This document shows, piece by piece, positions 38,003-60,658 of a DNA stretch of 64,000 bases. How positions within the stretch are numbered: position 1 is the first letter of the stretch; every line of letters starts with the position of its first letter. The stretch lies in contig CAZFEF010000001.1 in assembly GCA_964517555.1 (NCBI GenBank), positions 56,598 to 120,597 on the forward strand, written 5' to 3'. The position numbers were made by a program, and so were the translations under genes. This stretch comes from an uncultured Gammaproteobacteria bacterium. Lineage in GTDB: Bacteria; Patescibacteriota; Patescibacteriia; Patescibacteriales; UBA12465. The notes under the pieces are model-generated. The model was given only the letters and a program-made list of their open reading frames with translations. It was not told the DNA's origin and searched no databases.

Positions 38003-38046
38003 AAACAAAAATGAGCCGAAAGGCTCATTTTTGTGTATATGCTCGC
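38003..38046. repeat. copy 1 of a ~44-bp hairpin repeat (AAAAATGAGCC-gaaa-GGCTCATTTTTGTGTATATGCTCGC)
   Basis: Near-identical to copy 2 at 38808-38849. A-run, hairpin, T-run. TGTGTATAT resembles an extended -10. Confidence 0.6.
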
Positions 38047-38114
38047 TTGGAGGGGCTGCTTTCGAGCTTTATTTGCAGAAACATTATAAAAAATGATAAC
38101 ATATAAAAAAGTTA

Positions 38115-38747
38115 TTGAATCTTATTAATATGACAACCGCGCTACAAATAATTGCCTCTATCTTGCCAATAGCCGTTTGCATAACCTATTTAAGACAAGT
38201 GTCCAGAGGAGAATCAACACCCAATCCTAGTACCTGGGTTATTTGGTTTATAGTAACAGGCATTAATACAGTGACCTATTTCCAGGTTGTAAATAGTGAT
38301 TATTTCAAAACCTCAATTGTATTTACGGTTTTCCTCTCTATGGGCGCGACTATGGCCTATTCTTTTTTTAAAGGAAAATTTGCAAAGCTAGCGAAGCTTG
38401 ATATGTCCATACTAACTTTATCTATAATTATTGGAATATTTTGGTGGATAACCAAAAATGCTGATATTGCTAGCTTGCTATTACAAATAATAATTTTTAC
38501 CTCCTACCTACCAACAGCCGTTGGTCTAATAAAAAATCGTCTGAAAGAAAAACATTTACCTTGGACATTAATTGTAATAGCCTATATCCTCCAAACTATT
38601 TCATTGTTAATGAATTATGATGGCAATTTATATCAGTTATTTTTACCGACTATTAATGGCATTATTGGCAATGGATTAATTTTAACAATAATTTTATATA
38701 AAGAAGTAAAAACGGGCAAATGGATTCGAACCAATTTGACCCAATAA
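38115..38747 (+). CDS. hypothetical polytopic membrane protein (210 aa)
   Basis: Six hydrophobic helices. Its last about 9 codons fall inside direct repeat A. Confidence 0.5.
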   Translation: MNLINMTTALQIIASILPIAVCITYLRQVSRGESTPNPSTWVIWFIVTGINTVTYFQVVNSDYFKTSIVFTVFLSMGATMAYSFFKGKFAKLAKLDMSILTLSIIIGIFWWITKNADIASLLLQIIIFTSYLPTAVGLIKNRLKEKHLPWTLIVIAYILQTISLLMNYDGNLYQLFLPTINGIIGNGLILTIILYKEVKTGKWIRTNLTQ

Positions 38748-38797
38748 AAATGACCTACTCGCTAAAATAATAAAACCAAGGCCAAAATTTTCGAATC
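38722..38797. repeat. direct repeat A (~76 bp, ~80% identical to 62457-62532), candidate island boundary
   Basis: ggattcgaac[c/t]aattt[g/a]acccaataaaaatg… is shared with the region overlapping the 3' end of the serine recombinase gene. In copy A it encodes …WIRTNLTQ*. In copy B it would encode GIRTNLTQ*. Confidence 0.55.
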
Positions 38798-38807
38798 ATA
38801 TACCATA

Positions 38808-38849
38808 ACAAAAATGAGCCTTTCAGCTCATTTTTGTATATATGCTCGC
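38808..38849. repeat. copy 2 of the ~44-bp hairpin repeat / bidirectional terminator
   Basis: AAAAATGAGC-ctttca-GCTCATTTTTGTATATATGCTCGC. Sits between convergent genes (38115..38747 + and 38908..39834 -). Confidence 0.6.
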
Positions 38850-38907
38850 GCATAAGGATTATTTCCGAACTTTTAAATGCTTAAATATTAGGGATATTAG
38901 AAAATTA

Positions 38908-40011: not shown

Positions 40012-41268
40012 TCATTTATTACAATTAAGGCCAATAACGGAAATATATTGATCGTTTGAATATATCTTTTCAACACTTGACAAAATAGAAGAAAAATCAT
40101 CATAACTAATATTCTCATCATTATTGAAAATTACAAAGATTCCGTAGCCAGAATCCGTTCCTTGAATGTACTGAATCAACTTCTTCCTATAATTTGACCT
40201 ATTTTTAAATCCTGACAACTCGGTATTAGTAGTGAGCTTTAATTCAATTAATATTGAACCTACAAAGCCATAAGAAACTAAAAAATCGGTTCGCTTATTA
40301 TCCAATAATTGAGTTTCTCTTCTGATGCTAATTTCTTCTTTTCTGAGCCCACCTTTTAATAAGCAATTTTCGATCTGACTATTAATCGTTTTTTGTATAA
40401 GATCCTCCTGTTTTCTGCCTGCCTCAATAATAAATCTATACGCACCCTCACTTTCAACCCATTGCCTCAAATCAGTTTCGAATATTTTTTTTACAAATTC
40501 AAATAAATCTCTTTTTGTAGCTATATCTAAATACATCATACCCTTAAGCTGATTATACTTTTTTATACAATCGGCAATATTTTTTGGTTTACCCAAATAC
40601 TCAATATATTCTTGCTTTAAATTTTGGAATTTATACCTAAGCCAATTAACTCCTGGCTTCTTGGAATTATTAATAATAAATTTTTCCAAGTCTCTAAGAT
40701 AACTATACGTATTATGCTCCTTTAAATTTTTATAATACTGAATTACAATTTCCCAGAGATAACTCGAATACGAATAATAAGGCTTGCCCTTTGAATATAT
40801 AACTAAAGAGTCTTTTAATAAATCCAAAAATAATTTCTTGATATCGCATTTTAATACCCAGACCGTTCTTTGATTATTTTTGGAAACCTGATTGGCAAAT
40901 TCTGCTAAACGATAAACAGCCCGATGAGTACCTTTATCTAAGCGGCACGAATAGGAATCAGAGATAAATTGTTTATCAAAATATTGATAGATTTCCCGGT
41001 AAAGCAAATGGTGGAGCAATCTGTCTCGGACTGTCGCTTTATGAATATTTCTCGGTTTGGGATCGGAAATATTAAAGGCTTGGTAGTTGCTATGTTTGTA
41101 GGTCTTGTTTTTTAAATCATGGTGGAGGCTAATGATATTATCCATTAATCTGCCTTGAAACAGTATTACGTCATTACGTTTTCTTTTACCCGTCAAAAAC
41201 TCCTCCCAAGCTAGAAGTAAGTTGGCAGTGGTAATAATATCTTCGTATTTTTTAATAAATTTCTTCAT
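40012..41268 (-). CDS. DGR-type reverse transcriptase homolog, N-terminal RT motifs 1-3 only, fused to an unrelated ~230-aa C-terminal region
   Basis: LLLAWEEF…GKRKRNDVILFQ…PKPRNIHKATVRDRLLHHLLY…FISDSYSCRLDKGTHRAV…VLKCDIKKLF matches the DGR RT finger/palm motifs 1-3. No motif 4 (GxPxG) or YxDD catalytic box follows. Confidence 0.6.
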   Translation of the reverse strand: MKKFIKKYEDIITTANLLLAWEEFLTGKRKRNDVILFQGRLMDNIISLHHDLKNKTYKHSNYQAFNISDPKPRNIHKATVRDRLLHHLLYREIYQYFDKQFISDSYSCRLDKGTHRAVYRLAEFANQVSKNNQRTVWVLKCDIKKLFLDLLKDSLVIYSKGKPYYSYSSYLWEIVIQYYKNLKEHNTYSYLRDLEKFIINNSKKPGVNWLRYKFQNLKQEYIEYLGKPKNIADCIKKYNQLKGMMYLDIATKRDLFEFVKKIFETDLRQWVESEGAYRFIIEAGRKQEDLIQKTINSQIENCLLKGGLRKEEISIRRETQLLDNKRTDFLVSYGFVGSILIELKLTTNTELSGFKNRSNYRKKLIQYIQGTDSGYGIFVIFNNDENISYDDFSSILSSVEKIYSNDQYISVIGLNCNK

Positions 41269-41274
41269 AAAAAT

Positions 41275-41643
41275 ATGAGTACAATTCTTCGCCCACCGGT
41301 CGTGCTCGTTAAAGCTAAGGAGACCTACGCGATTTGGTTCAAAGTTTTGGCTGACTTTCCTAAAGCTTATCGCTATAACCTGGGTGGCAAGATTGAAAAC
41401 TCTTTTTTATCAATTTTAGAAAATATTTTTATCACTGCTTATCTTTCTGGAGAAAAGAAACAAGCGCAGCTATGCTTGGTAATTACCAAACTTGATGGTC
41501 TAAAATTTTTTCTGCAGCTGGCCTGGGAAAATAAATGCCTTTCTAATAATAAATATTCTTGTCTTTCTGAGCAGTTAGAAGAAATTGGTCGGATGCTGGG
41601 TGGTTGGAGAAAAGGTTTAGAAATGAAAACTCCCGCCAAATGA
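41275..41643 (+). CDS. avd: Avd-like four-helix-bundle protein (DGR accessory variability determinant / 23S-IVS protein family)
   Basis: About 120 aa. YAIWFKVLADFPKAYRYNLGGKIENSFLSILENI matches the four-helix-bundle (Avd) family. It sits between the template repeat and the RT gene but on the opposite strand. Confidence 0.6.
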   Translation: MSTILRPPVVLVKAKETYAIWFKVLADFPKAYRYNLGGKIENSFLSILENIFITAYLSGEKKQAQLCLVITKLDGLKFFLQLAWENKCLSNNKYSCLSEQLEEIGRMLGGWRKGLEMKTPAK

Positions 41644-41659
41644 ACGGGAGAATATCAAT

Positions 41660-41768
41660 AATTGCGGGAGAAAACCTGGTTGCCATCGTTCCACTCGTTA
41701 GGATTCTCAACCGAGTTCGCCTTGACGTTCCAGCCATCGTCATTCCAGTTCACGTTCACAGCACGGAG
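41660..41768 (-). repeat. DGR template repeat (TR), 109 bp
   Basis: Matches the variable repeat at 42127-42235 except for 18 positions that are all A on the minus strand in the TR, plus one synonymous C/T difference. In the target-gene frame the variable positions are AAC/AAT/GAC/GAG codons (LRAVNVNWNDDGWNVKANSVENPNEWNDGNQVFSRN). Confidence 0.85.
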
Positions 41769-42103
41769 GCATCGATTATGTACTGAAAACCGTCTAGATC
41801 ACCGTCCTTCGGCTTAATGCCCCGGGATTGTATATTATTCGGGACCTGAAAGTCCACCAGTTTTCAGTACCAATTATTGAAGTTTTTGAAGAAGTCTCTC
41901 CTACTCTCGCGCTAGGCTTGCCCGACGCGACTCCGAGGCTAAGAATTCTGAAATCATGGCGAAATAGCCGTAACCGTTTCGCGATTCTTGGTTTCATATC
42001 AATGTATCATAAATAAGCGGAAATAAAAAGACCCTCGGACTGTTTCAGTTTTCAAGAAGAAAAAAGAAAGAGTCAAAGGGTCATAGATTCAAAGGTACAA
42101 GGG

Positions 42104-42796
42104 TTAAACGGTCTTAGTGACCGAGGAATTGCGGGAGAAAACCTGGCTGCCACCGAACCACCCGAGAGGACTCCCAACCGAGAGCGCCTCGACGTACCAG
42201 CCACCGCCATCCCAGTCCACAGTCACAGCACGGAGTGTACCAGTGATGTCACGGATATAGAAGATATTGGCGTAACCGTTATTAAGCAGCTCGCTTTTTT
42301 CTCCGTTTGCCTGACGCTCCATCATGGCATACATTTCTGATAAAGTGGTTTCGGATTTTTCCTGGCCACCAAGTTCGGAAATGATAGGGCCATCAACCGA
42401 TCCCCGGTTTAGCTTGCGTCCGTAAACTGTACTGCCGGCAAAGGGTTCTTCGGTTTTCTCTGTAAACCAGGCTTTGAAATTATCACCTACATAGGAAATC
42501 TTGACCTTAGCCTTCTTGCCCGTGTCAACCACAAATTTATCTTTAGCGACAAATTTTTCGGTGGTGGCAGAGAGAGTAACAGTTGAAATCACTTCGCTCA
42601 AGATAGCAGGGGCTGGTGGAACATCAGTCTTAGAGCGGTTAGTGATTGCCTGAATAAACAGGTCAATTCCCTCTCCGGCGTTTTGAATGAGCCACTGGGC
42701 GTCATCATTTGATAATTTTTCGAATCTGTCCTGGAATTCTACCATTCTCCCAGCGATCATGTGCTTCTGTTTTGTTGTTGCCATTTTGGCCTCCAA
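42104..42796 (-). CDS. DGR target (variable) protein, 230 aa, C-terminal VR
   Basis: The VR lies in the last about 40 codons (…LRAVTVDWDGGGWYVEALSVGSPLGWFGGSQVFSRNSSVTKTV*). No signal peptide is evident. Confidence 0.7.
   Translation of the reverse strand: MEAKMATTKQKHMIAGRMVEFQDRFEKLSNDDAQWLIQNAGEGIDLFIQAITNRSKTDVPPAPAILSEVISTVTLSATTEKFVAKDKFVVDTGKKAKVKISYVGDNFKAWFTEKTEEPFAGSTVYGRKLNRGSVDGPIISELGGQEKSETTLSEMYAMMERQANGEKSELLNNGYANIFYIRDITGTLRAVTVDWDGGGWYVEALSVGSPLGWFGGSQVFSRNSSVTKTV
42127..42235 (-). repeat. DGR variable repeat (VR) at the 3' end of the target gene
   Basis: See the TR entry. The substitutions relative to the TR are adenine-specific. Confidence 0.85.
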
Positions 42797-42935
42797 TTTT
42801 TACAGGTTTTAAAAGAATTTTCTGCGCTTCACCCAGCAGAATTTGGGCATTATTCTTTATTAAATTAATGTATAATTATATCACGTAATTAGACTTATGT
42901 CAAGCCGAAATAAAAATAAACCGTGGGCAGAATAA

Positions 42936-43298
42936 TTACCTACAACGCCTCTTCTTCTTAATAAAATCAAGAGTCAAATTTATCTCTTCTATTATTCTTG
43001 GGTTTTCATTCACCCAACAATTTTTAAGACCAATTAGAATCCTCTCGGAAACTTCATAATATCTTCTAAAATTTCTAAGTTCAAAAACAATAGCTATTTG
43101 TCTGTCTAGTTTTTTGTCTTGTCTACCAGACTCAATATCAACTAAATCTTCTACTAACTTGTGGTATATTTGAAAATTCCTATTTTTACGATAATCTCCA
43201 AATTTTATAATCGACCAAGCTATAACAAAGATACTCACTAGTATGCCCAGAGCTCCTGTATAATCATTTAAAAATGCGAAAATTTTGATAAACCACAT
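42936..43298 (-). CDS. hypothetical membrane protein (120 aa)
   Basis: N-terminal TM helix. ORF only. Confidence 0.35.
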   Translation of the reverse strand: MWFIKIFAFLNDYTGALGILVSIFVIAWSIIKFGDYRKNRNFQIYHKLVEDLVDIESGRQDKKLDRQIAIVFELRNFRRYYEVSERILIGLKNCWVNENPRIIEEINLTLDFIKKKRRCR

Positions 43299-44420: not shown

Positions 44421-45338
44421 TTATGTTTTATTAAATAATTTATCAGCAATATCTATAATCTCAATCTTTTTAGCAACTCCATTAATCCACCTTTCCGGTA
44501 TTCCGTCGATTCCATAATAAGCACCGGCTAATTGTCCGTATATTGCAGCTGTAGTATCAGCATCGTCTCCCAAGTTTACGGCTTTTAGCACGCCCTCTTC
44601 AAAAGTCTCCGAATTATAAAACGCCCACAAAGCGGCTTCAAGCGATTTAACCACATAGCCCGACCCCTGAATAAAAGGCGGCTGCTGATTTTTATACGAT
44701 CCGAGAGCTACGGTTTCTGTCTCTTTAACTAATTTATTTTCAATCCAAAAATCTTTTATAGGGCAAAAAAGTGGTTGCAACAACTCCTCTTTAGTCGCTC
44801 CGTTTAATGCTCCAATAATAAGCCCGGAGTAATATTTACAAGCATCAGCACATAATTGTGATTCGTGAGTTACTCTAGAACTTAATTCTGCATATTTAAT
44901 CGCTTCAAAAACATTGTCTCTAAAATACAGTGGGATTGGGGCTATGCGCATCAAGCTACCATTACCATCAGAATTTCTAGAAGAAGTAGTTACATAAGGA
45001 TTTTCTCCGTTGTAAGCTACTAGAGCCCTTAAAACTGTCTGGCCAACGCCGAATGATCTGCCAGTGCTAGAGCAATAACCGGTTTCAAGCCATTTTTTAT
45101 ATTTATCAGCTTGATCCTTGGGGTCAAAACCCATACTCTCAATTAAACTATTAGCGAGACACAAAGCCATCGCTGTATCATCAGACCAACACCCCGATGG
45201 GAGGCGATTAGAATCTTCAAAATCATTAACGGGTTTAAAACTTCCTATAGATTTGAATTCTACTGGGACTCCAAGAGCATCGCCTATTGCCAAGCCAATC
45301 AATGATCCGCGATATTTTTTCAACAATTCACTATTCAT
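44421..45338 (-). CDS. ADP-ribosylglycohydrolase family protein (DraG/ARH-like)
   Basis: N-terminal GSLIGLAIGDALGVPVEF and C-terminal LGDDADTTAAIYGQLAGAYYG are diagnostic of the ADP-ribosylglycohydrolase fold. Confidence 0.8.
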   Translation of the reverse strand: MNSELLKKYRGSLIGLAIGDALGVPVEFKSIGSFKPVNDFEDSNRLPSGCWSDDTAMALCLANSLIESMGFDPKDQADKYKKWLETGYCSSTGRSFGVGQTVLRALVAYNGENPYVTTSSRNSDGNGSLMRIAPIPLYFRDNVFEAIKYAELSSRVTHESQLCADACKYYSGLIIGALNGATKEELLQPLFCPIKDFWIENKLVKETETVALGSYKNQQPPFIQGSGYVVKSLEAALWAFYNSETFEEGVLKAVNLGDDADTTAAIYGQLAGAYYGIDGIPERWINGVAKKIEIIDIADKLFNKT

Positions 45339-45353
45339 TATTCGATAAATTAT

Positions 45354-45599
45354 TTATTTCTTAACATCAAGTCCATAAAATAATCCGGCAGCCTTATCGC
45401 CAAATTTTTCGTAAGCAATATCATCGAGCCCGCTCCTTAGCCCTCCAAATGACTCCTCAACGGTCCGCCACCTCTTTAATAGTTCGGTTTTGGGTAATTT
45501 AGAGCTCAAATATGTAAATAGTTCATTAAGGCTTCTTCTGGTATCTTTTGCCTTAGAACCAATTTCCCTGCAATCTTGTAAAGTAAAAATGTCGTTCAT
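45354..45599 (-). CDS. hypothetical protein (81 aa), immediately upstream of the ARH gene
   Basis: ORF only. A 15-bp gap to the ARH gene suggests an operon. Confidence 0.35.
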   Translation of the reverse strand: MNDIFTLQDCREIGSKAKDTRRSLNELFTYLSSKLPKTELLKRWRTVEESFGGLRSGLDDIAYEKFGDKAAGLFYGLDVKK

Positions 45600-45872
45600 A
45601 GATTTAATAGTTAATATTTATAGATTATGGGCCATTTTGCTGAGTCCATCTCTATATATTTTAACTGAAAAATCATCGATTAGCCAGAGCAATTTATGGT
45701 TTGTTTATTTTCGATTCAACCTTATCTAAAGGGTTCTGCCCAACAGCTAATTTAACTAAATTAACCAGATTTAAACCTTTTTCAATGGCCTCGGATTTAC
45801 TTATTTTCTTATGAAATCTTTTCTCATAAAGCGCCTGAAACTCTAATATTTCCTCATCGGTAAAATACATAT

Positions 45873-47375
45873 TTATAGATTATTAAACATTTTGTCCAAA
45901 CCATCCTTCAAAACCATCGTCGCTTTGCAATCGTCTTCATTGTAAATCTTAATTCTCTCCAATGTCTTTTCGTCTCCGGTTTCTAAATAATCGTTATACC
46001 ACTGAATCGATAATGCTCCTGATGGGGTCTCATCTCGCCACTTAAACCCTAAATAAACAGCCAGCTCTTTTATGGAATAACTTGGTAGCGGCCAGTCTGT
46101 GTGCTTTAAAACTACCTGATATAAATCAACTGTATTTTCCTGTTCAAAAAATTGTAATACTTCCTCGGCCGAAATGACATCCGGGTATTGTTTCTGCAAT
46201 TTTTTATAGGTAGTTTTTTCGTGAGGTGAATAGTAATAAACCGAATAATCATTCTCAGGCAAAGTTTTAATATACTTCCAAAAATTGGCCCAAGCTTCTT
46301 TTTCTCCGTCCGGCGTATTATCTTTAGCCGTAAAATCTATAAAACGTTCACCCTTAGGGCTGCGCTCATAAACTCCGTGCAGATAAACAAATTCCTGAGT
46401 CGGGTCATCTTCAATGTCAAAAAATAATTCATAATTAGTTTTAGGTAATTTAATTTTTTTATAAGCTACTGGGGCTTTAATATTTAATAGGACATTTGCT
46501 CTCTTAATAATTTTAATTAGAGTATCAGGCCCAACTCCTTTTAAAAATTTCTTATCCTTCTTTTTTTTCTCAGTAATATATTCTAAATCAATTCCTAATA
46601 TATCCTCAATTTTATAAATTCCCAATTCTTGGTTGATGATATCCCTCTTGCTACGACCAACATAAAACAATCCAGTTAAATCATTGTTTTCAAAAACCCA
46701 TTTTTTGCAACTACTATACCAGGGGCAGAGTTTACATTGACCAAAATAAGCGGGTAAATTCTGAGCCTTATTTTGTAAAAGTAAATCAACATTATTTTTT
46801 ACTGTCTTATAATAATCCCAGACAGTTGTTTTTTCCCTTTGATTTAATAATTCATTTAAGTTATAAACCGCTTCCTCTTTATGGACGTCTAAAATAATCC
46901 CTTTATTTTTATGCTCAAATCCCAATATCTCCAGAAGTTCAACATAAAAAGCCAATTGGACGGCATAATGCTTTTTCATTTTCCCGCCCTCTCCACTTTC
47001 CTCATCGACTCCAGCAAAGCCCATACCAGATTTTATCTCTATCGGGATATAAGTTCCATCAGGCTCCAATCTTAATAAATCAGGAATCCCTAAAAGATTC
47101 TCATACTGCAAAACCCCTTGATAAATCAAAGGGGTTTTATTATTTAAAGCTTCTAAGGTTTTTTTCGCTCGTTCTTCGTAGTTACCGTCACTTAAATCTA
47201 AAGTATTGCCAAGACCTTTCACCACATCTTTTTCAAACTGAACTCCTCGGTCCCAAAGCATCTGCACAAAAGGATTGATCTCTTTTATTTTTTCTTCCTG
47301 CGGACCATAAGCGTCTCGCCACACACGGTGCGGACATTGAGTATAATCATAAAGCTTTGATCCGGTAATTTTCAT
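45873..47375 (-). CDS. RecB/Cas4-like PD-(D/E)XK nuclease (TM0106-type) with C-terminal RNase-H-like region
   Basis: N-terminal YDYTQCPHRVW…, EIK, and a Cys cluster (CKLCPWYSSCKK) as in Cas4/RecB-family nucleases. The start overlaps the upstream GmrSD-like gene. Confidence 0.55.
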   Translation of the reverse strand: MKITGSKLYDYTQCPHRVWRDAYGPQEEKIKEINPFVQMLWDRGVQFEKDVVKGLGNTLDLSDGNYEERAKKTLEALNNKTPLIYQGVLQYENLLGIPDLLRLEPDGTYIPIEIKSGMGFAGVDEESGEGGKMKKHYAVQLAFYVELLEILGFEHKNKGIILDVHKEEAVYNLNELLNQREKTTVWDYYKTVKNNVDLLLQNKAQNLPAYFGQCKLCPWYSSCKKWVFENNDLTGLFYVGRSKRDIINQELGIYKIEDILGIDLEYITEKKKKDKKFLKGVGPDTLIKIIKRANVLLNIKAPVAYKKIKLPKTNYELFFDIEDDPTQEFVYLHGVYERSPKGERFIDFTAKDNTPDGEKEAWANFWKYIKTLPENDYSVYYYSPHEKTTYKKLQKQYPDVISAEEVLQFFEQENTVDLYQVVLKHTDWPLPSYSIKELAVYLGFKWRDETPSGALSIQWYNDYLETGDEKTLERIKIYNEDDCKATMVLKDGLDKMFNNL

Positions 47376-47380
47376 AAATA

Positions 47381-49084
47381 TTAATCAAACTTTTTCATAA
47401 AAATATTTATTGCGTCAGCGATAGCCTTTCTTCTATAGACAAGGAAGTCTATATATTTATCTAATTCCCACAAATCCTTATTTGTCGGTATTAATTGCGA
47501 AGTTAATGCATCTTCACCACGTTTTTCAACAACCTCTTTCTCGAGATATTTTATAGGCTCTTTATTAGTAATCTGTCTATTAGTTTTACCACCAATAAAA
47601 GCCATATTAGATATCTCATTGACTTCTTTTTGATCATACATAGCCTTAATTAAAGACTTTGGAAAAATATGGTGATATTGAATAGTGTGCGCCCTTCCAA
47701 CGTGACTATCGGCCAATTTTAAACCAGTCCACCAATCCTTAGCCTCATTCTGTCGCAAAACAAAATATAGCATTGAAAATAAAGGACTTCTGATTCCTTT
47801 AAATGCTAAGTCGTCTGAATCAACAACAAATTTTTTAACGTGCAAATGTAATTGATTAATTAATTCATCTAATCCCTTCTCTTTAAACAGAATAGATAAG
47901 TCAGCATCCAATATAGACTCAGATGAACCCATACTGTAGTGTCCTCTCATATGAGCCAAATAAAACCACTTTAACATTTTCTTCTCATCCTCTGGGCTTA
48001 ATTTATAATCATTTAGAGCTGAATAAAGTGCGATTGGCACTAATAAAAATGGAGAGGAAAGAAATCTAAGACTATCAATGCCGGCATTATTTCTGATAAA
48101 ATTTATAGCAAATTCTAAGCTACCAGTTGCGGTCTTCCACGATTCTTCCAATTTTTGTTTACTTAACTTCCCAACAGTTTTAAATTTACTTTGATGAGTC
48201 GCAAATATTGTTAACATACGAACTGGCAAACCAGTTTCAACAATATAATCCTCATCGCCATCAAACTGACCGGCAAAATTTTCTATAAGATCCATAAAAC
48301 CCTTCCACTTAGAAGTGATTTGGGCTAAGGCCAAATCAGAGCCTCTTAATTTAATGCCCAAGGAGTTAACTCTAACGAAAATTTCGGTAACCTCTTCATA
48401 TGACATTCTTTTTTCTAAAACCTGCATAACATATTGATAGTCTGATATTTTTTTAACTTTTTGTAATCTTTCGGAATATTTATCCCACTTCTCATCATCT
48501 GAATTTATACCAATAGATTTTAATATCTGGTTTTCGGTTTTCTTAAAAATATCAGAAACCAAAACCCAAACTGGATCGTTTTGCAAGGAGCGGCTCGCTA
48601 CTACGAATGTTCTCTTTTTCATATCCTGTTGAATATCCCTCTCTGCGCTCTCTTCATCCTCAACTTCCTCAATATCTGCATTAAAATCGCTCTCATCATC
48701 AACTAAAAGTTCTACTGGTGGGCCATCTGGATGTTCTAAGTTAAAAAGAATATCAATCGGTCTTCTGCGTCCCCTAACCTTAACTGGTTCTCCAGTTAAA
48801 ATAGCTGATAATGAAGTAACTCTTTGTTGTCCATCTAATAATAAGAGCTTCTGTGACGTCGTAGGACTTTTAGTAGCTTCAACCGCCAAACCTCTATCTT
48901 GGATATCTTCATCTGTCTCCCAAACCAAAATTGTTCCAGATGGATATCCTCGATACAGAGAATCTAATAAATCGCGGACTCTAGTAGCTGGCCATACATA
49001 GCGACGCTGCATTTCCGGCAACGTTAATTCATTTCTTAAAACCTTGTCGACTAATTCACGGACTGTTATATCTGTTTTTGGCAT
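47381..49084 (-). CDS. GmrSD-like DUF262 (ParB-like) + DUF1524 (HNH-like) putative type IV restriction enzyme
   Basis: N-terminal ELTLPEMQRRYVW…SGTILVW…LLDGQQRVTS (DUF262 signature). C-terminal HTIQYHHIFPKS…NMAFIGGKTN (DUF1524 His-Me finger). Confidence 0.75.
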   Translation of the reverse strand: MPKTDITVRELVDKVLRNELTLPEMQRRYVWPATRVRDLLDSLYRGYPSGTILVWETDEDIQDRGLAVEATKSPTTSQKLLLLDGQQRVTSLSAILTGEPVKVRGRRRPIDILFNLEHPDGPPVELLVDDESDFNADIEEVEDEESAERDIQQDMKKRTFVVASRSLQNDPVWVLVSDIFKKTENQILKSIGINSDDEKWDKYSERLQKVKKISDYQYVMQVLEKRMSYEEVTEIFVRVNSLGIKLRGSDLALAQITSKWKGFMDLIENFAGQFDGDEDYIVETGLPVRMLTIFATHQSKFKTVGKLSKQKLEESWKTATGSLEFAINFIRNNAGIDSLRFLSSPFLLVPIALYSALNDYKLSPEDEKKMLKWFYLAHMRGHYSMGSSESILDADLSILFKEKGLDELINQLHLHVKKFVVDSDDLAFKGIRSPLFSMLYFVLRQNEAKDWWTGLKLADSHVGRAHTIQYHHIFPKSLIKAMYDQKEVNEISNMAFIGGKTNRQITNKEPIKYLEKEVVEKRGEDALTSQLIPTNKDLWELDKYIDFLVYRRKAIADAINIFMKKFD

Positions 49085-49103
49085 ATAATATTTAAATTAA
49101 TAA

Positions 49104-49298
49104 TTATTTAATTAAATAAGCTATAAAAATAAAAATAGAAAAAATAATAAACCAAATAATAACTTTGCTAATTTTTTTAGCTATTCCATCTTTTACGTGC
49201 CCACCGACTGACTTCCAAAAATTTTTTGAAGAAATTATAGAGATGCCCCATATTACAAGTAAAACTATTACGATTGAAATTAATATTTGTTTTAACAT
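49104..49298 (-). CDS. small TM protein (64 aa)
   Basis: Two hydrophobic helices. Embedded in the defence operon. Confidence 0.35.
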   Translation of the reverse strand: MLKQILISIVIVLLVIWGISIISSKNFWKSVGGHVKDGIAKKISKVIIWFIIFSIFIFIAYLIK

Positions 49299-49303
49299 AA
49301 TTT

Positions 49304-50035
49304 TTAATTATTGTCTTTCTTACCAAAATTTAAAGTGGTAATATTTAAATATTGATATAAAAAATCTTCAGTCTTCTCAAGTATTTCATTGGTCGCCCCT
49401 TCAATTTGTGGAAAGTTTCTAGTTGAAGTTTCAATCCAAAATATCTTACCTTTTTCGAAAGACTCGTCCCGCTGCTTTTCAAAAGAATCTATTGCATATT
49501 GTGTTAATTGGCCCCTGATTGGATTGGTCTCCAACAGCATAGTCTCCGCCATCTCCATATTAATAACGTTAGTATCCACAAATCTATCATTCCCGTGCCT
49601 ATGAGTCCCACGGTGGGTGGACACACCCTTAAAAACTTTGAATATTTGATCGTTTACAAATTTTAATGCTTTAGAAACTTCTTCTTTATTTTTTGCAATC
49701 CGTTTTAAGTCATTCTTAAGACAGCCAATATAATTGGTGAGTTTATTTTTTAATGTCTCAACATCTTCAAGGTATGCGTGAATATGATGCTCTAATGCCT
49801 CACGATTTTTTATATTTTTCGATAAGGGATAAAACTCTAAAAAATATACTTCATATCTAGATATTTTATTAAGAAACCATTTTATGGAGCTAATTATTCT
49901 AAAATATTTATCAACCGAATCTTTCTCAAAATCTTTACTAAATATAATTTTATTTTTATAGTCGGCCTCAAAAAATTCTGGATGAGAATAACTGAGCAAG
50001 TCGTTTAAAATTTTATCAATCTCTTTATTACCCAT
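49304..50035 (-). CDS. hypothetical protein (243 aa), possible HEPN/Abi-like
   Basis: Contains an Rx4H-like stretch (THRGTHRHGND). Sits directly downstream of hsdR. Assignment is weak. Confidence 0.35.
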   Translation of the reverse strand: MGNKEIDKILNDLLSYSHPEFFEADYKNKIIFSKDFEKDSVDKYFRIISSIKWFLNKISRYEVYFLEFYPLSKNIKNREALEHHIHAYLEDVETLKNKLTNYIGCLKNDLKRIAKNKEEVSKALKFVNDQIFKVFKGVSTHRGTHRHGNDRFVDTNVINMEMAETMLLETNPIRGQLTQYAIDSFEKQRDESFEKGKIFWIETSTRNFPQIEGATNEILEKTEDFLYQYLNITTLNFGKKDNN

Positions 50036-50083
50036 AACTATTTATTACAAAACTTATTAATTACCTTTCTCATTTTCGACAGT

Positions 50084-53047
50084 CTATTCTTCTCTTAACG
50101 CCAGAACCTTATCAACTACAAATCGCAACATTTTCTTTTCAATATATTCGTTTAACTCTTTATTGTTTGCGAGAGTTTCGTAAAGTTTTTTATCGGTATC
50201 ATATTTATCAAAAACTTTATTTTCAAACGGTTTATGAAACCATCTACCGACCGCCTGCATAGAACTGTTGTTATAAACAACGTTTTGAGCTTCTTCATCA
50301 CTCACCAACTCTTCGCCAATAGAATTAAGGGTTTTTTGTTGATCCTCTCCAAAATCTAAACCCCAGTGCTTATTAACATCACCAATTATCTGTGAAATAA
50401 GATCCTCTGTTTCTTCAAAAGGAACCCCGGGAACTATCTCGTCCTGGTGGACATCGCCAGTTTCCGGTGAAAGAGTAATACTTGATTGAAGTTTGCGAAC
50501 TACACGCACCGAATCCATATCAACATATTTTAAAATTTCGATAAGCGGCTTCTTAGGATCCTTAGGCATTTTTTTCAGAAGATATTTCAATAAAAGATAT
50601 AGCTTCTCGTGAGAGACCTCTGAATAGCCAACAACCTGAGCGAGATATGGATAGCGCTTTGTGTAAACATTGCCAATCGAAAGGAATTCTCCATACTTAT
50701 CCTCAACTATTACATCGCCATTACTTTTGTGAGGTAACTCGGCAATAATTTGTTTGGCAATTTTATCCAAAAAGGCGTTAGCATTTTGATGTATCTCTTC
50801 AGCATTTGGATCAATCAAGGCAACAAAACCATCAAGCACTTCATCACTAAAATTATAAACAGCGAAAAGCGCTTGCCGCAAATCATTAAGCGCATTTATA
50901 TCCGTCCCCTCAGAAATTATTGTGCTGGTATAATAAGGTTCAAATGCTTGTTTAATATCATCCACCTCATTTACAAAATCAAGAACATATACCTGGTCTT
51001 TATCTCGTGCGGTCCGATTTAGACGAGAAAGGGTTTGAACTGCCTGCACGCCAGACAAATGCTTATCTACATACATCGCACATAAAAATGGTTCATCGAA
51101 TCCAGTTTGATATTTTTCGGCTACGATTAAAAAACGATACTCAGCTTTTTTAAATTCTTTGGCAGTATTATCTTCAGGAATTCCTTCGTTAATAGAGGTT
51201 TCAGTATATGACACGCCATCTATCTCGATTGAATCAGTAAATGCCGCCAATGTTTTATGAGTATAATTATGCTCGCGCAAATAATGATCTAAAGCTAACT
51301 TATATCTAACAGCAGCTTCTCGTGACGAGGTCACAATCATTGCTTTAGATTCTCCCCGCAATAAGTCCTTAACCGTCTTCTCAAAATGTGCCATAATTAC
51401 TTCTATTTTCTGGTTTAAAGTAGTTTCGTGAAAATTGACGTGCCGCAAGATAGCAGACAATGCCCGTGCGCGCGGAACAGTCGGATCTTCGGCTGCTTTT
51501 TTCAAAAGTTTAAAATAAGTTTTATAGGTAGTATAATTTGATAGGACATCAAGAATAAATTTCTCTTCAGTCGCCTGCTTCATAGAATATAAACTGAAAG
51601 GTTGGAAGGAACCATCTGGTTGTTTTTCGCCAAATCGTTCTAAGGTTTCGTGCCTAGGTGTTGCTGTAAAAGCAAAATAACTTATATTACTTGGCTGTTG
51701 ACGACTTTCTACTTGTTGGACAAGCCAATTTTCAACATCTTCTACGCCAAGTCGATCCTGCACTGCTCGCGTAAGTTCACCTGACTGAGAAGAGTGTGCT
51801 TCATCTACAATGAGTGCAAACTTTTTTGCAGAGAGTTTATTAACCAACCCATTTACAAACGGAAATTTATGAATGGTGGAAGTAATTATCTGCGCATCAC
51901 CCTCAAGTGCATCTTTTAAACGCACGCCGTCTTCGCCGGCCGGGACAAATATTCCCGACACCGGTGATAATGCTCGAATAATTTCTCGCAACATTTTATC
52001 TAATACACGACGATCAGTTAAAACAATTACTGCGTCATACACTCTTTCATTTTTTTCATCAAAAAGATTAATTAAGCGATGCGCTAACCAGGCGATAGTT
52101 AAACTTTTACCACTGCCAGCGCTATGTTGAATAAGATAGTTCTTCCCAGCATTATGTTCTTGCGAAGCTAAAAGTAAATCTAAGACAGTCCGCCATTGCT
52201 GGTAACGTGGGAAGAGTTGAATTGGTTGTTTATATTCCCTGCCTAAACGATCCTCACGAACTTCATCATAGGCGTGAACAAAAAACTGCAATAAATCAGC
52301 TAATGAATCTGGCGCCCAAAGATTTTCCCAAATATAGTGGGTTTTGTGCTTACCTTCTATGGGCGGATTACCAGCGCCTAATTCAAATCCTTTGTTGAAT
52401 GGCAAGAAAAAAGTGCGCTCGTTTTTTAACTCAGTAGTAACAAAAGCCTCGCTTGTATCCATAGCAAAATGCGCCACGCAACGCTTGAATGCAAAAAGTT
52501 TTTCACGGGGATCACGATCATTTTGATATTGGCGAATGGCGTGATAAACGTTTTGACCGGTTAACTCATTCTTCAATTCGGCAGTAATAACTGGGATACC
52601 ATTTATAAAAAGCACAGCATCGATAGATTGCTCCGTTGTTTGTGAAAATTTTACTTGGCGAGTAATAGAAAAAATATTTTCATTATACACTCGCTCAACA
52701 TCTTGATTTTCAGCATTTACAGGACGGAAATAAATAAGATCAAATTTAACAGGCCCATCTTCAACCCCCTTGCGCAAGCAATCTATAATTCCACGTCTAC
52801 CAATTTCCTCATCAATCCGACGAACTAATCGTGACTCAAAATCATCGCCAGATATTTTTTGAAGCTTAGAAAGTTTTTCACCCTGAGTGGCACTCAAAAA
52901 TTCAAAGAGAAGTTCTGCATCAAAAGTAGTTATCTTATCATAGTCCTTCTCGGCATTTCGCTTACGAAAACCGTGCAGGCGGGCAAGCTCTTTTTCAATA
53001 TGTTTTTCAAATTCAATCTCTTTCAAATTTTGATGAATGTTTGGCAT
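50084..53047 (-). CDS. hsdR: type I restriction enzyme R subunit
   Basis: N-terminal PD-(D/E)XK region (FINGIPVITAELK) and SF2 helicase motifs, including LIVDEAHSSQSG. Confidence 0.9.
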   Translation of the reverse strand: MPNIHQNLKEIEFEKHIEKELARLHGFRKRNAEKDYDKITTFDAELLFEFLSATQGEKLSKLQKISGDDFESRLVRRIDEEIGRRGIIDCLRKGVEDGPVKFDLIYFRPVNAENQDVERVYNENIFSITRQVKFSQTTEQSIDAVLFINGIPVITAELKNELTGQNVYHAIRQYQNDRDPREKLFAFKRCVAHFAMDTSEAFVTTELKNERTFFLPFNKGFELGAGNPPIEGKHKTHYIWENLWAPDSLADLLQFFVHAYDEVREDRLGREYKQPIQLFPRYQQWRTVLDLLLASQEHNAGKNYLIQHSAGSGKSLTIAWLAHRLINLFDEKNERVYDAVIVLTDRRVLDKMLREIIRALSPVSGIFVPAGEDGVRLKDALEGDAQIITSTIHKFPFVNGLVNKLSAKKFALIVDEAHSSQSGELTRAVQDRLGVEDVENWLVQQVESRQQPSNISYFAFTATPRHETLERFGEKQPDGSFQPFSLYSMKQATEEKFILDVLSNYTTYKTYFKLLKKAAEDPTVPRARALSAILRHVNFHETTLNQKIEVIMAHFEKTVKDLLRGESKAMIVTSSREAAVRYKLALDHYLREHNYTHKTLAAFTDSIEIDGVSYTETSINEGIPEDNTAKEFKKAEYRFLIVAEKYQTGFDEPFLCAMYVDKHLSGVQAVQTLSRLNRTARDKDQVYVLDFVNEVDDIKQAFEPYYTSTIISEGTDINALNDLRQALFAVYNFSDEVLDGFVALIDPNAEEIHQNANAFLDKIAKQIIAELPHKSNGDVIVEDKYGEFLSIGNVYTKRYPYLAQVVGYSEVSHEKLYLLLKYLLKKMPKDPKKPLIEILKYVDMDSVRVVRKLQSSITLSPETGDVHQDEIVPGVPFEETEDLISQIIGDVNKHWGLDFGEDQQKTLNSIGEELVSDEEAQNVVYNNSSMQAVGRWFHKPFENKVFDKYDTDKKLYETLANNKELNEYIEKKMLRFVVDKVLALREE

Positions 53048-53051
53048 AATT

Positions 53052-54311
53052 TTATATTTTAATTTTACCCGTCACCGCAGAATAGATAAGCGACGAGCGA
53101 TATTCTTTTAGTTGATTAGTCTGTGAATTAATAAGTATAATGGCTTTATCTATTTTATCCGTCTCTACATCTAAATAGCCTGAAATCAATTCTTGCTCCT
53201 GTATGCCTGGAACTTGCACAGAGAGAGAAAGTAGATCCCACTGATTAAGAGTTGATCGCACGCCCATTCCCAAAAAATTAAAAATACCCTGTAAATATAA
53301 CGAATAGTATGCCCAATAAAAATATTTGGATATTAACTTTGAATTAGGAACTATACGCAAATAAGCTGAACTCATAATTCCTTTTTCAGGCACTATGCCG
53401 ACACGACTTGTTTGACGATTTTCAAGATCTATTAATTTAAACACTAAATCATCTTTATAAAAAATTTGATAACTTGCATAATCGGCTGGGACTAAACTTC
53501 TAGCCTCGTAGTCCTCCTTATTAATAACACCCCTGAGAGTTAAAGCTAAAATATGATCGCATTGATATTTATCATTAAGTTCTTTTTTATATCTAAATAT
53601 AAATTTTCCTCGACGCATCTCCCATTTACTAGGAATACCGCCCACCCAATCAACATTAGAAGATTTCATTTCAACTTTTGAATCGAGACCCCTGGTAACA
53701 GCACTAATAATAATCGCGGCACGTTTTTCACGCAATAAATCAACCATTTTTTCTTTCTTTGCAATCAACTCGTCAATAATTCTTGTTTTCTTATCTAGAA
53801 AATCAGCGATTTGCTGTTGGCTCTCAATGGGAGGGACAAGAATCGGAAAATTTAAAAGAATCTCGTCTTTTAATACCCAACGATGGTCAACTGAAACACC
53901 TTGGCCAAAAGGAAAAAATATCTCATTTAAATAATGCCATTGAAAAAAATATTTATAGTATTTTAAAAATAAAACTGCCTTTTCTTTTTTACGAATCGTA
54001 GTATACGCCAAACTAATAACACCATCAAAAATAGAGAGATCTACCGCTCCAGTGCGAAGATCCATAGGATTAAAAACTATATCGTCTTTTCTGATACGAG
54101 TATAACTTTCATAAGTCTCTGCTATTTGACCTTCATTATTAGATATATCTCTAATTTTAATCCCCTTTTGAGTCAAGGAGAGCACTGGAAGATCTTCGCC
54201 TGAATTTTTTTCTTTAGATATTTCAAATAAATTTTTAATACGAAGCAGCTCCCAATTTTTAGGAGTATTGTTTAACCAACTAATTTTAGATAAATTTACA
54301 ATATCTTTCAT
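53052..54311 (-). CDS. hsdS: type I restriction-modification specificity subunit
   Basis: Two target-recognition domains separated by conserved helical spacer regions. Overlaps the hsdM stop codon. Confidence 0.8.
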   Translation of the reverse strand: MKDIVNLSKISWLNNTPKNWELLRIKNLFEISKEKNSGEDLPVLSLTQKGIKIRDISNNEGQIAETYESYTRIRKDDIVFNPMDLRTGAVDLSIFDGVISLAYTTIRKKEKAVLFLKYYKYFFQWHYLNEIFFPFGQGVSVDHRWVLKDEILLNFPILVPPIESQQQIADFLDKKTRIIDELIAKKEKMVDLLREKRAAIIISAVTRGLDSKVEMKSSNVDWVGGIPSKWEMRRGKFIFRYKKELNDKYQCDHILALTLRGVINKEDYEARSLVPADYASYQIFYKDDLVFKLIDLENRQTSRVGIVPEKGIMSSAYLRIVPNSKLISKYFYWAYYSLYLQGIFNFLGMGVRSTLNQWDLLSLSVQVPGIQEQELISGYLDVETDKIDKAIILINSQTNQLKEYRSSLIYSAVTGKIKI

Positions 54312-56347
54312 AATTTTTTAAGATTAGAAAGAATTTCTTCCTCTATTTTTTTAATATCTATCTCTATTTCATCGAATTTACGCGGTTCTCGGTATTCATA
54401 GAAAAATCTCGTGAAAGGAATTTCATAACCAATAACACCAACACCTTGGTCTTTTCCGTCACAAACACTTTCATCTACCCAAGCATCTGGTGCATAAGGT
54501 TTTACTTCTTTTTCAAAGTATTTGTTTATATCCATCCCCCACGGCACACGTTCATAATCCTTAAGCTCGTTATCGGCCTCTTGTTTTCCATTCTCATCCA
54601 AACAAATCTCGCCCTCTTCATCGCGCTCACCAATTTGCTGCCAAACAATTTTAGCAATTCTTTTAGTAGTTTTAAGATTTCTTTTTTTGAGTTCACTTTC
54701 TAATTTTTCTAAAAAATCAACCCGTGAAATAATTATTTCCCCTTGTATGCTTTCCAGTATTTCATAAATAGCGGCGCGAAGCTCCTGCCATAATTTATTT
54801 TCCTCATCGCCTTTTTCACCTTTTTTCTTACTCGGCACGTCATTTAAGAAATCCTTATGATTTTTCAACCGTTCTAAAGTTTTACTATTGATTTCAAATT
54901 TAAGACGAAGCGGGCGCTGAATCGTAATCTGCCGATAAGCAAAATCGGTTGTGTTAAATATTTTTACCTGTTCAGTATTTTTATTTTCAATATAATGCTC
55001 TAAAATTTCCTGCGCATTTTCATCAGTTATTTCATAGCGCTTCTCTCCAAGATTTTTTCGCAGCTGTGTGCGAATATTACGTGCATCAACTAGCATCACT
55101 TTGTTTTTTCGATCAACAGGTTTTTGTGTTGAAAATATCCAAATATACGTAGAGATTCCGGTATTAAAAAATAATTTTTCAGGAAGAGCAACAATCGCAT
55201 CTAATAAATCATTTTCTAAAATCCAGCGACGTATTTCACTCTCACCACTGCCGGCATCACCGGTAAAGAGTGGTGAACCATTAAAAATAACAGCTGCTTC
55301 ACCTCCACCTTCTTCTTTTGTTTTTAATTTAGAAATAATATGTTGCATAAACAAAAACTGCGCATCGGAAATCCTAGGTAACCCAGCGCCAAATCTGCCA
55401 GAGAATCCTCGTTCTGCCTCACTCGCAACTGCAGTTTTATCCTTTTCCCAACTCACCCCAAAAGGAGGATTGGAAAGAACGTAGTCAAACCTCTGCCCTT
55501 GATGTTGATCGTTAGACAGCGTGCTTGCCTTGGTGTGCTCCTTGTCACCGCCCTTAATTGAGTCAATATCCTCGCCCTTAAGCAGCATATCTGCCTTACA
55601 GACCGCGTAAGTAGTTGAATTAAGCTCTTGGCCATAAAGAAAAATCTTAGCATCCTTGTTAAAGTGAGTCTGAATATAGTCCTTACTTACGGTGAGCATT
55701 CCACCAGTGCCGCAAGCTGGATCATAAATCTCTTTAATCGCGCCCGGTTTAGCTAACTCCTTCTCTTTACCAGTAAAAAGCAAGGATGTCATAAGACGCA
55801 CCACGTCGCGTGGAGTATAGTGCTCTCCGGCTGTTTCATTAGATTGTTCAGCAAAGCGACGAATAAGATCTTCAAAGGCAAGGCCGATAATATGGTTTTC
55901 TACTTGGTCAGGATGAAGATTTATTTTATTAAACTCTTTTAGCGCAAGATAAAGCAATTCTGACTCGTGCAATTTATCTAAAATCCTATCAAATTCAAAT
56001 TTAGCAAAAATTTCTTTAACATTATCGGAAAAACCATCGATATATTTGCGTAAATTAGGCGCGGCTTGCGTCGGCGCTTCTAAAAGCTTTTTGAAAGTAT
56101 AGGGTGAAGTATTATAAAAATTATATCCGGTTGTGCGATAAAGAATGTTGAGATTTTTAACGCGACCATCGAGCTCATTAAACCGCTCCAGGGTTTTTTG
56201 TTTTGTTGGTTCAAGGGCGTCGTCCAATCTCTTAAGGACAGTCAGGGGCAAAATAACATCCTGATAATCTTGAGCCTTAAAAGTGCCTTGCAGATGGTTC
56301 GCAATATTCCAAATCGTATTAGATATTTCTCGATAATTTGTTAACAT
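54308..56347 (-). CDS. hsdM: type I restriction-modification N6-adenine DNA methyltransferase subunit
   Basis: Motif I (IYDPACGTGGML) and motif IV (LSNPPFGVSW). Confidence 0.9.
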   Translation of the reverse strand: MLTNYREISNTIWNIANHLQGTFKAQDYQDVILPLTVLKRLDDALEPTKQKTLERFNELDGRVKNLNILYRTTGYNFYNTSPYTFKKLLEAPTQAAPNLRKYIDGFSDNVKEIFAKFEFDRILDKLHESELLYLALKEFNKINLHPDQVENHIIGLAFEDLIRRFAEQSNETAGEHYTPRDVVRLMTSLLFTGKEKELAKPGAIKEIYDPACGTGGMLTVSKDYIQTHFNKDAKIFLYGQELNSTTYAVCKADMLLKGEDIDSIKGGDKEHTKASTLSNDQHQGQRFDYVLSNPPFGVSWEKDKTAVASEAERGFSGRFGAGLPRISDAQFLFMQHIISKLKTKEEGGGEAAVIFNGSPLFTGDAGSGESEIRRWILENDLLDAIVALPEKLFFNTGISTYIWIFSTQKPVDRKNKVMLVDARNIRTQLRKNLGEKRYEITDENAQEILEHYIENKNTEQVKIFNTTDFAYRQITIQRPLRLKFEINSKTLERLKNHKDFLNDVPSKKKGEKGDEENKLWQELRAAIYEILESIQGEIIISRVDFLEKLESELKKRNLKTTKRIAKIVWQQIGERDEEGEICLDENGKQEADNELKDYERVPWGMDINKYFEKEVKPYAPDAWVDESVCDGKDQGVGVIGYEIPFTRFFYEYREPRKFDEIEIDIKKIEEEILSNLKKL

Positions 56348-60035: not shown

Positions 60036-60064
60036 TTATTTCGGTAGTTTTAAAGCAAAAATAT

Positions 60065-60658
60065 ATGATTAAAATGATTAAAACGATCAAAGAAGACTGT
60101 AAAGATTTCAGCGTCTACGACCTTAAACGTTGGGGACTTATACAATATGGATATTGCCGCGGGTCAATTCTGTGGCCCAAAGGCCAAAACCTCGAAGGAG
60201 ACAAGGTAAACTATGTCCTTGATCTAAAAAACCAATATTTAAAATTAAGCTATAAAGTCAAAAAAGAATTTTCAAGGGAATGGAAAATGATTGAATATAC
60301 GATTCCCCTAATCAAGACTGCTTGTCACTATGGCGATGAAAGATGGTGGTTCGCGTGCCCATTAAGTAGAAATGGCCAATATCGCACGCACAGAGTGGCT
60401 AAGTTATATTTACCTCCCAATTCTGACTATTTTGCTTGTCGCCATTGTCTAAATTTATCCTACAAAAGCAGAAACGAGAATTATAAAGGCAGATTTGGAC
60501 ATCTAAGAAGGTTTTTTGACCTTGAGAGGCGGGTTGAGAAACTTCGAAAAAGGGCAAAGATAAAATTCAGGGCCGGAAAGCCAACCCAAAAATACCGCAA
60601 ACTTCTAAATAAAAGCCGTTTACTGCGATATTCGGAGATTATTAACGGTGAACCCTGA
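60065..60658 (+). CDS. hypothetical Cys-rich protein (197 aa)
   Basis: CxxG…WWFACP…CRHC pattern suggests a zinc-binding protein. No assignment. Confidence 0.35.
   Translation: MIKMIKTIKEDCKDFSVYDLKRWGLIQYGYCRGSILWPKGQNLEGDKVNYVLDLKNQYLKLSYKVKKEFSREWKMIEYTIPLIKTACHYGDERWWFACPLSRNGQYRTHRVAKLYLPPNSDYFACRHCLNLSYKSRNENYKGRFGHLRRFFDLERRVEKLRKRAKIKFRAGKPTQKYRKLLNKSRLLRYSEIINGEP

Follow-up and report, generated by a model that had tools for sequence, protein, structure and literature searches.

A Patescibacteria-type diversity-generating retroelement whose variable protein was most likely left frozen by truncation of its reverse transcriptase

We analysed a stretch of 64 kilobases (kb) of contig CAZFEF010000001.1 (hereafter the window) and observed that its minus-strand open reading frame (ORF) at 42104-42784 is, with good probability, the variable-protein gene of a diversity-generating retroelement (DGR) of the type carried by Patescibacteria (also known as candidate phyla radiation, CPR), and that its variable repeat (VR) is most likely the frozen product of past diversification. 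The VR was rewritten by adenine-specific mutagenesis from an adjacent template repeat (TR) rich in Asn codons, and the same positions have been rewritten in thousands of relatives while the scaffold stayed fixed. The protein has three parts. A small exchangeable module of helices at the N-terminus is joined by a linker to an alpha/beta domain of 165 residues, the end of which is encoded by the VR. Loss of the reverse transcriptase (RT) by fusion to a DUF8371 tail would then have frozen the VR, unless another DGR in the genome supplies an RT in trans. An earlier note on this DNA had already proposed a DGR variable protein at this position; that observation is real and was correctly described, but it is ordinary for the lineage. 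What is new here is the RT, truncated at residue 147 and carrying a DUF8371 tail, and a covarying RNA of ~200 nucleotides (nt) upstream of the TR.

The TR (41660-41768) and the VR (42127-42235) form a direct repeat of 109 nt when read on the minus strand. The TR is non-coding and contains 28 adenines and seven AAC codons (conceptual translation LRAVNVNWNDDGWNVKANSVENPNEWNDGNQVFSRN). The VR sits at the 3' end of the target gene and encodes residues 184-220 of the 226 in the protein. The two repeats are mismatched at 19 positions, and adenines of the TR account for 18 of these (P = 1.3e-12 for at least 18 of 19, hypergeometric). The sole non-adenine mismatch, C to T, falls on the third position of an AAC codon that reads ACT in the VR and also carries an adenine change. 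Because the differences are confined nearly to TR adenines, we identify the pair as DGR repeats, which bears out the earlier proposal; the same adenine bias rules out a chance or paralogous repeat as the source of the similarity. The changes are concentrated at codon positions 1 and 2 and affect 15 codons, every one of them non-synonymously. In the TR these codons specify Asn (nine), Asp (three), Glu (two) and Lys (one), in exact agreement with the 15 diversified residues at Asn, Asp, Glu and Lys codons that the earlier note had counted. In the 226-residue numbering they are residues 188, 190, 192, 193, 194, 197, 199, 201, 204, 205, 207, 208, 210, 211 and 213.

At their 3' ends, where elements for the initiation of mutagenic homing (IMH/IMH*) would lie, the VR and TR run into a common ...CAGGTTTTCTCCCGCAATT and part immediately afterwards. 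A 5-bp stem, CGGTC/GACCG, comes after the VR. In most relatives the corresponding ends read CGCAAT (VR) and CGAAAC (TR). Just past the target stop codon, short repeats of the type GACCCTTTG / CTTTGA occupy 42040-42103 on the minus strand, and such motifs are found at most ~60 nt downstream of the VR in many related loci, whether cassette-linked or orphan. They could serve in target recognition or as a spacer element.

The RT of this cassette is a 5' remnant. ORF 40012-41268 on the minus strand resembles RT models over its first 147-155 residues only, matching RVT_1 at positions 8-79 of 205, the PADLOC RT model at positions 3-148 of 263 and TIGR04416 at positions 28-142 of 353. Its alignment to full-length relatives (330-331 aa) stops at ...VLKCDIKKLF. 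The RT part (40828-41268, minus strand, residues 1-147) comprises the N-terminal extension and the fingers and has no YxDD motif. It is fused in frame to the 3' part of a DUF8371/HyoA-like gene (40012-40827, minus strand, 271 residues). This tail matches NF058534 HyoA at positions 1244-1382 of 1430 (E 1.5e-8), the C-terminal region of HyoA-like NACHT antiphage proteins, and PF28130 is the precomputed assignment for the fusion ORF. An identical junction is present in an independent Logan assembly. We rejected the RT-DUF8371 chimera as a conserved architecture because the only homologue of similar length, P0125, aligns up to the junction and has an N-terminus of its own that is not an RT. Apparently, one deletion brought the 5' part of the RT gene together with the 3' part of a defence gene, truncating both parents. 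Searches of the window by tblastn with three intact RTs returned no other RT piece, and no YxDD ORF of more than 150 aa is present anywhere in the 64 kb. The locus therefore has no full-length YxDD RT adjacent to its repeats and, since its RT is reduced to the first 147 residues, the cassette cannot make complementary DNA by itself.

The target protein belongs to a large family. A word-indexed search returned 515 homologues at E<=1e-3 (best E 1e-106 at 76% identity), and an exhaustive profile search yielded 3,688 cluster representatives (clusters built at 50% identity), including 971 with E below 1e-30. The named sources of these representatives are almost all Patescibacteria. Likewise, the titles of 59 genome loci nearly all name Patescibacteria/CPR lineages or simply 'bacterium'; two loci, L009 and L012, carry the label 'uncultured Gammaproteobacteria' metagenome-assembled genomes. 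Across the family, the VR scaffold LRAVxVxWxxxGWxVxAxSVxxPxxWxxGxxVFSRN is fixed, with its columns 87-100% conserved. In an alignment of 120 homologues, W191, G195, W196, V198, A200, P206, W209 and V215-F216-S217-R218 are conserved at 87-99%, which confirms that the diversified residues are interspersed with conserved W, G and V. Mean entropy in these homologues is 2.96 bits at the 15 variable columns versus 0.56 bits at the scaffold columns.

The seven AAC-templated columns (residues 188, 190, 197, 201, 207, 210 and 213; alignment A3) hold 831 residues, of which 99.5% can be encoded by NNC codons. Since the hypervariable positions coincide and their residues stay within the NNC set, the whole family has been written by DGRs. 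These columns are dominated by R, D, Y, G and S in the family alignment, with Arg, Asp and Tyr over-represented, and 22.5% of their residues are hydrophobic against 37.5% expected from random NNC codons. Thr, Ala and Pro make up 0.6%, 1.0% and 0.4%, against 6.25% expected for each, so that adenine-to-cytosine changes at codon position 2 are either rare or selected against. The composition indicates that selection favours polar, surface-type residues at the variable positions.

The conserved unit of the family spans residues ~55-220 and is C-terminal in every profile match. The first 50 residues are exchangeable: the P0077/P0120 subfamily has other, unrelated sequences in their place, and members of 167-180 aa lack them altogether. 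Rare relatives combine the domain in other ways: P0130 has a Sec signal peptide and two tandem domains, P0150 has one domain behind N-terminal membrane helices, and P0129 carries five tandem VR-type domains in 926 aa. AlphaFold2 models of the target protein were confident both at full length (predicted local distance difference test, pLDDT, 92.1; predicted template modelling score, pTM, 0.71) and for the domain alone (pLDDT 94.4, pTM 0.90). They place four short helices, assigned by DSSP, in an N-terminal module (42641-42775, minus strand, residues 4-48), followed by a linker of low confidence (residues 49-60) and, in agreement with the family profile matches, an alpha/beta domain of ~165 residues that includes the VR (42125-42613, minus strand, residues 58-220). 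The N-terminal ~180 aa, described in the earlier note as unassigned, are thus not a separate region: residues ~58-220 form one domain together with the VR-encoded part.

In the model, the strands of this domain are 62-71, 96-99, 118-125, 173-178, 184-191, 196-202 and 214-217, and its helices are 101-107, 131-137, 141-144 and 148-157. The VR encodes the hairpin 184-191/196-202, the loop 203-213 and the last strand, 214-217. On the hairpin strands, the variable residues 188 and 190 and 197, 199 and 201 alternate with V187, V189, W191, W196, V198 and A200. An antiparallel hairpin of this kind would turn the variable side chains of the hairpin and loop to a single side, where they would form a diversifiable binding surface. 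The spacing had been likened to the ligand-binding face of C-type-lectin-fold DGR proteins; the alternation fits one exposed face, but a C-type-lectin fold is not established by the searches that follow.

No Pfam, NCBIfam or PADLOC family matched the target protein in profile scans, and among 32 members of the family the Pfam models FGE-sulfatase, DUF1566 and Lectin_C gave no match even at E<=10. The Pfam model Chordopox_A33R matched 2 of the 32 weakly (E 0.016); poxvirus A33R is a C-type-lectin-like protein. The structure prediction and fold search proposed in the earlier note gave a mixed outcome. The models were confident (pLDDT 92 and 94), and Foldseek returned C-type lectins as top matches, but no match in the PDB or BFVD was significant, and Mtd and TvpA were not among the 50 matches listed. 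For both models, the top PDB match was 3whd, the C-type lectin domain of human MCL (E 0.36 and 0.30; template modelling (TM) score 0.33-0.37), aligned over 128 columns at a root-mean-square deviation of 5 A and 7% identity. The top two BFVD matches were a Ranid herpesvirus C-type lectin (E 0.014) and then UL45, which is also C-type-lectin-like. When the family profile was run against PDB sequences, the sole match was a chance one, UNC5D, at E 2.1.

The target protein shares several features with the solved C-type-lectin DGR proteins Mtd (Bordetella phage BPP-1), TvpA (Treponema denticola), AvpA (Nanoarchaeota) and TaqVP (Thermus aquaticus). The VR occupies the very C-terminal end of an alpha/beta domain, AAC-templated variable residues alternate with a conserved aromatic, Gly or hydrophobic scaffold, and the domain ends in a conserved hydrophobic-F-x-R strand. 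This ending may resemble GFR/IGxRG endings. In contrast, we detected no sequence similarity and no significant structural similarity to these proteins. The target protein is much smaller than Mtd or TaqVP, and has neither a trimerisation domain, as Mtd does, nor a lipobox, as TvpA and LdtA do. The canonical C-type lectins (human MCL 3whd, herpesvirus proteins) are its nearest neighbours in the PDB and BFVD and have a compatible order of helices and strands, at matches that are not significant. They differ from the target protein in that it has no cysteine, so that disulphides are impossible.

An alternative is that the domain is a distinct scaffold that is not a C-type lectin fold and evolved independently to tolerate DGR variation. 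The two confident models found no significant neighbour in either library, with TM scores no higher than 0.37; PDB sequences gave no profile match, no Pfam or NCBIfam family applied, and Wu et al. (PMC5758913) left the CPR VR classes UVR1-6 unassigned, with the fold inconclusive. However, a C-type lectin domain tops every search in two independent libraries, and the order of elements, in our own reading beta, beta, alpha, beta, alpha and four beta, is compatible with such a domain. Moreover, all DGR variable proteins solved so far share the C-type lectin fold, and Roux et al. (PMC8144416) anticipate that the CPR domains still without assignment are new variants of it. We consider a distinct scaffold rather unlikely. 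The C-type-lectin reading is plausible but unproven, and the scaffold is probably a compact, divergent C-type-lectin-like fold.

Next to the TR lies avd (accessory variability determinant; 41275-41643, plus strand), which encodes 122 aa, is apparently intact, and is opposite in strand to the target gene, the TR and the RT. Its product matches PF22296 bAvd (E 1.5e-15) and NF033474 DivGenRetAVD (E 2.5e-20, positions 3-104 of 104), the latter at 72.7 bits and thus below the curated cut-off of 80 bits. In ~22 related loci we observed a conserved order: the target gene with its VR, ~470 nt, the TR, avd on the opposite strand, and an RT of ~280-370 aa with YxDD. The TR in these loci is the same Asn-rich repeat ~470 nt downstream of the VR, and the RT is divergent from avd in all intact relatives. 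An opposite-strand avd is therefore normal for the lineage, since related loci share order and orientation; we ruled out an inversion or misassembly, as the orientation is the same in 20 of 20 avd-bearing relatives.

Not all relatives retain a complete cassette. Several further loci keep a TR but no RT, or have a partial RT (L006/L007/L015, L030, L037 and L044). In about 16 loci whose sequence extends for at least 3.4 kb (mostly 6-8 kb) past the VR, the VR is diversified and TR, avd and RT are all missing, and ~40% of family members have no TR or RT nearby; this census is approximate, as it combines two scans and some TRs were misclassified in one of them. Cassette decay, in which the RT is lost and the diversified protein is kept, is by these counts recurrent in the family. 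Several genomes have two or three family members on different contigs and only one cassette: L010, L031 and L054 in Bacterium BMS3Abin15, and L022 and L063 in Paceibacterota SO_2017_LW1_33. When the L010 TR was compared with the L031 VR, which lies on another contig of BMS3Abin15, we counted 14 mismatches at adenines and 4 elsewhere, whereas unrelated TRs gave 15-21 mismatches outside adenines. This fit hints that one TR may serve several or remote targets.

Some points weigh against our overall reading. The best structural matches (E 0.30 in the PDB and 0.014 in BFVD, at the TM scores given above) do not demonstrate a C-type-lectin assignment, the solvent exposure of the variable residues is deduced from strand alternation and residue composition, and a hydrophobic segment at residues 55-73 looks like a membrane helix in some homologues. 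In addition, the TR and VR differ by one non-adenine change, within the range of 0-2 seen in intact cassettes, which does not point to prolonged decay after the loss of the RT; from this, either the loss was recent or an RT acts in trans. Finally, the window covers 64 kb of a contig of 159,696 bp, and a second RT may lie elsewhere in the genome.

The last two points raise the possibility that the VR is not frozen, and that a second, intact DGR elsewhere supplies RT in trans, using the present TR and structured RNA or a near-identical TR of its own. The TR, avd, the upstream RNA element and the target gene are all intact, and both the occurrence of multiple family members in several genomes and the fit between the L010 TR and the L031 VR are in line with a shared template. 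On the other hand, the window holds no second RT fragment or YxDD ORF, DGR RTs are generally considered to work on cognate RNA (bioRxiv 10.1101/2023.10.23.563531), and the recurrence of partial cassettes in the loci named above shows that decay is common. Supply in trans thus seems unlikely to us, and a variable tip that is frozen in the present genome is the most likely state.

Between the target stop codon and the TR lies a conserved structured RNA element of ~200 nt (41780-41982, minus strand), which ends 12 nt upstream of the TR and is a candidate for the 5' part of the DGR RNA. The 335-nt spacer that separates the stop codon from the TR is ~70% conserved at the DNA level in more than 20 loci. 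RNAalifold predicted 46 pairs from an alignment of 17 loci (alignment A6), with 96.4% of cells paired, compared to 40-53% in slid controls, and 35 of the 46 pairs have changed on both sides. The covariation score was 0.618, versus at most 0.22 with slid partners, and none of 500 shuffles reached it. We found no Rfam match at E<=1 for 41200-42900.

Ten nucleotides past the TR, a GC-rich, terminator-like hairpin with a T-run begins (41621-41650, minus strand); avd, on the opposite strand, has its final codons within the same sequence. The terminator scan gave it 8 pairs followed by TTTTCATTTC. A hairpin follows the TR in 19 of 19 loci listed, with compensatory changes at 4 of 6 pairs in a 15-locus alignment. 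It is the only minus-strand terminator-like site downstream of the target gene as far as the TR and, because this sole site lies just past the TR, the target mRNA, the structured RNA and the TR may be one transcript. With such an arrangement, the RNA that contains the TR would stop just past it, and the RT would be transcribed separately.

The cassette resembles that of BPP-1 (mtd-avd-TR-Sp-brt) in the adenine mutagenesis between TR and VR, in the presence of Avd and, in the relatives, in a group-II-intron-like RT. It differs in that avd is on the opposite strand, with TR and RT on either side of it, and in that the TR is directly followed by a terminator-like hairpin. The ~140-nt structured spacer of BPP-1 lies downstream of the TR (bioRxiv 10.1101/2023.10.23.563531), as does the RT-10 motif (PMC5737381). 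The covarying element described here is therefore placed differently from both, since it lies upstream of the TR. It may correspond in function to the spacer RNA of the BPP-1 DGR, but from an upstream position.

The start of the target gene could be read from the sequence. A Shine-Dalgarno sequence, GGAGG (42790-42794, minus strand), stands 5 nt upstream of the ATG at 42784-42782, and the TTG start at 42796 chosen by the ORF finder falls within it, so that the ATG at 42784 is the true start. The resulting length of 226 aa agrees with the homologues, which start MATTKQ, and with the database entry. The protein is thus as short as the earlier note had said, but its exact length is 226 and not 230 aa. 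About 90 nt upstream of the ATG is a candidate sigma-70-type promoter (42875-42903, minus strand) consisting of TTGACA, 17 nt and TATAAT, with TG before the -10 box. It matches the consensus at 12 of 12 positions, and on this consensus match the target gene would have a strong promoter of its own.

The target protein has a hydrophilic N-terminus and contains no lipobox, no cysteine and no signal peptide. Its maximum Kyte-Doolittle score in a 19-residue window is 1.18, at residues 55-73, and no segment is a convincing membrane helix, which upholds the earlier description of a protein with no obvious signal peptide or transmembrane segment. The equivalent segment exceeds 1.6 in 45 of 120 homologues, with values up to 2.44, and basic residues precede it. 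One could therefore take residues ~55-73 for an uncleaved signal-anchor that holds the variable domain outside the cell. The domain can work there, to judge from two rare relatives, P0130 with its Sec signal peptide and P0150 with its membrane helices at the N-terminus. However, the segment scores only 1.18 in the target protein itself and contains Glu, Ser and Thr. It was modelled by AlphaFold2 as a beta-strand of the main domain, with a block-mean pLDDT of 90-97 in both models, and its equivalent is clearly no membrane helix in the signal-peptide-bearing P0130 or in the domain-only relatives. Membrane anchoring of this kind is very unlikely; we conclude from sequence and model that the target protein is signal-less, with a small residual chance of a signal-anchor for some relatives.

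These properties agree with what has been described for the DGR targets of the same host lineage, the CPR (clade 2 of Roux et al., PMC8144416; UVR1-6 of Wu et al., PMC5758913). Common to both are a short target with a C-terminal VR, an Asn-codon-rich TR, the lack of a transmembrane, signal or Pfam domain, and a chromosomal rather than phage-encoded location. The difference is the loss of the RT in the present copy. Roux et al. (PMC8144416) noted that clade-2 targets are typically without transmembrane or other recognisable domains and already posed the question of whether they are truly not membrane-bound. The question of localisation and binding partner raised in the earlier note is therefore real, but it has already been stated for the clade (PMC8144416).

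A more far-reaching interpretation would make the family a cytoplasmic, non-secreted, DGR-diversified receptor of ultra-small Patescibacteria. Its scaffold would be distinct from the C-type lectin, and its antibody-like surface, rich in R, D, Y, G and S, would bind intracellular ligands such as phage- or host-derived molecules. The same interpretation includes a permuted DGR RNA, in which the ~200-nt element upstream of the TR forms part of the 3' untranslated region of the target mRNA and takes the place of the downstream spacer known from BPP-1. As a combination, we regard this as distinctly improbable.

The genes around the cassette offer no conserved partner for the target protein. The 120-aa membrane protein encoded at 42936-43298, which had been suggested as an anchoring partner, has no homologue in any of 65 related loci and is separated from the target gene by the full-consensus candidate promoter, and we rejected it. 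Only avd and the RT recur beside the target gene in these loci.

A run of defence-type genes (44421-56347) adjoins the DGR. It includes an ADP-ribosylglycohydrolase (44421-45338), a Cas4-like PD-(D/E)xK and RNase H-like nuclease (45873-47375), a GmrSD/HEC-05-like protein (47381-49084) and a type I restriction-modification system (R 50084-53047, S 53052-54311, M 54308-56347). Direct repeats of 84 nt (38712-38795 and 62447-62530, 80% identical) bracket ~23.7 kb in which, besides the DGR remnant and the defence genes, there are a primase-like gene and a large serine recombinase (interval 57852-62469), and the right-hand repeat adjoins a tRNA-Gln (62593-62664). From this layout, the 84-nt repeats look like the ends of an integrated island. 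A second pair of direct repeats, of 67 nt (38004-38070 and 38807-38873, 75% identical), flanks the membrane-protein ORF 38115-38747, and each copy holds a terminator-like hairpin, AAAAATGAGCC....GGCTCATTTTT.

Patescibacteria carry many DGRs, and the ligand and location of their small, signal-less variable proteins have already been posed as questions in the literature. To this our analysis adds the definition and size of one such family (3,688 clusters at 50% identity), a confident model that has no significant neighbour, and a dead RT. The model of a compact, diversifiable domain of 165 residues provides a handle on the family, and the rare relatives with signal peptides, membrane anchors or tandem domains hint at extracellular use. 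Cassettes without an RT, together with the ~40% of members that have neither TR nor RT nearby, matter for the counting of 'active' DGRs. The greatest novelty lies in the RNA element upstream of the TR: should it belong to the DGR RNA, the ribonucleoprotein architecture known from the Bordetella phage element would be rearranged in this Patescibacteria lineage.

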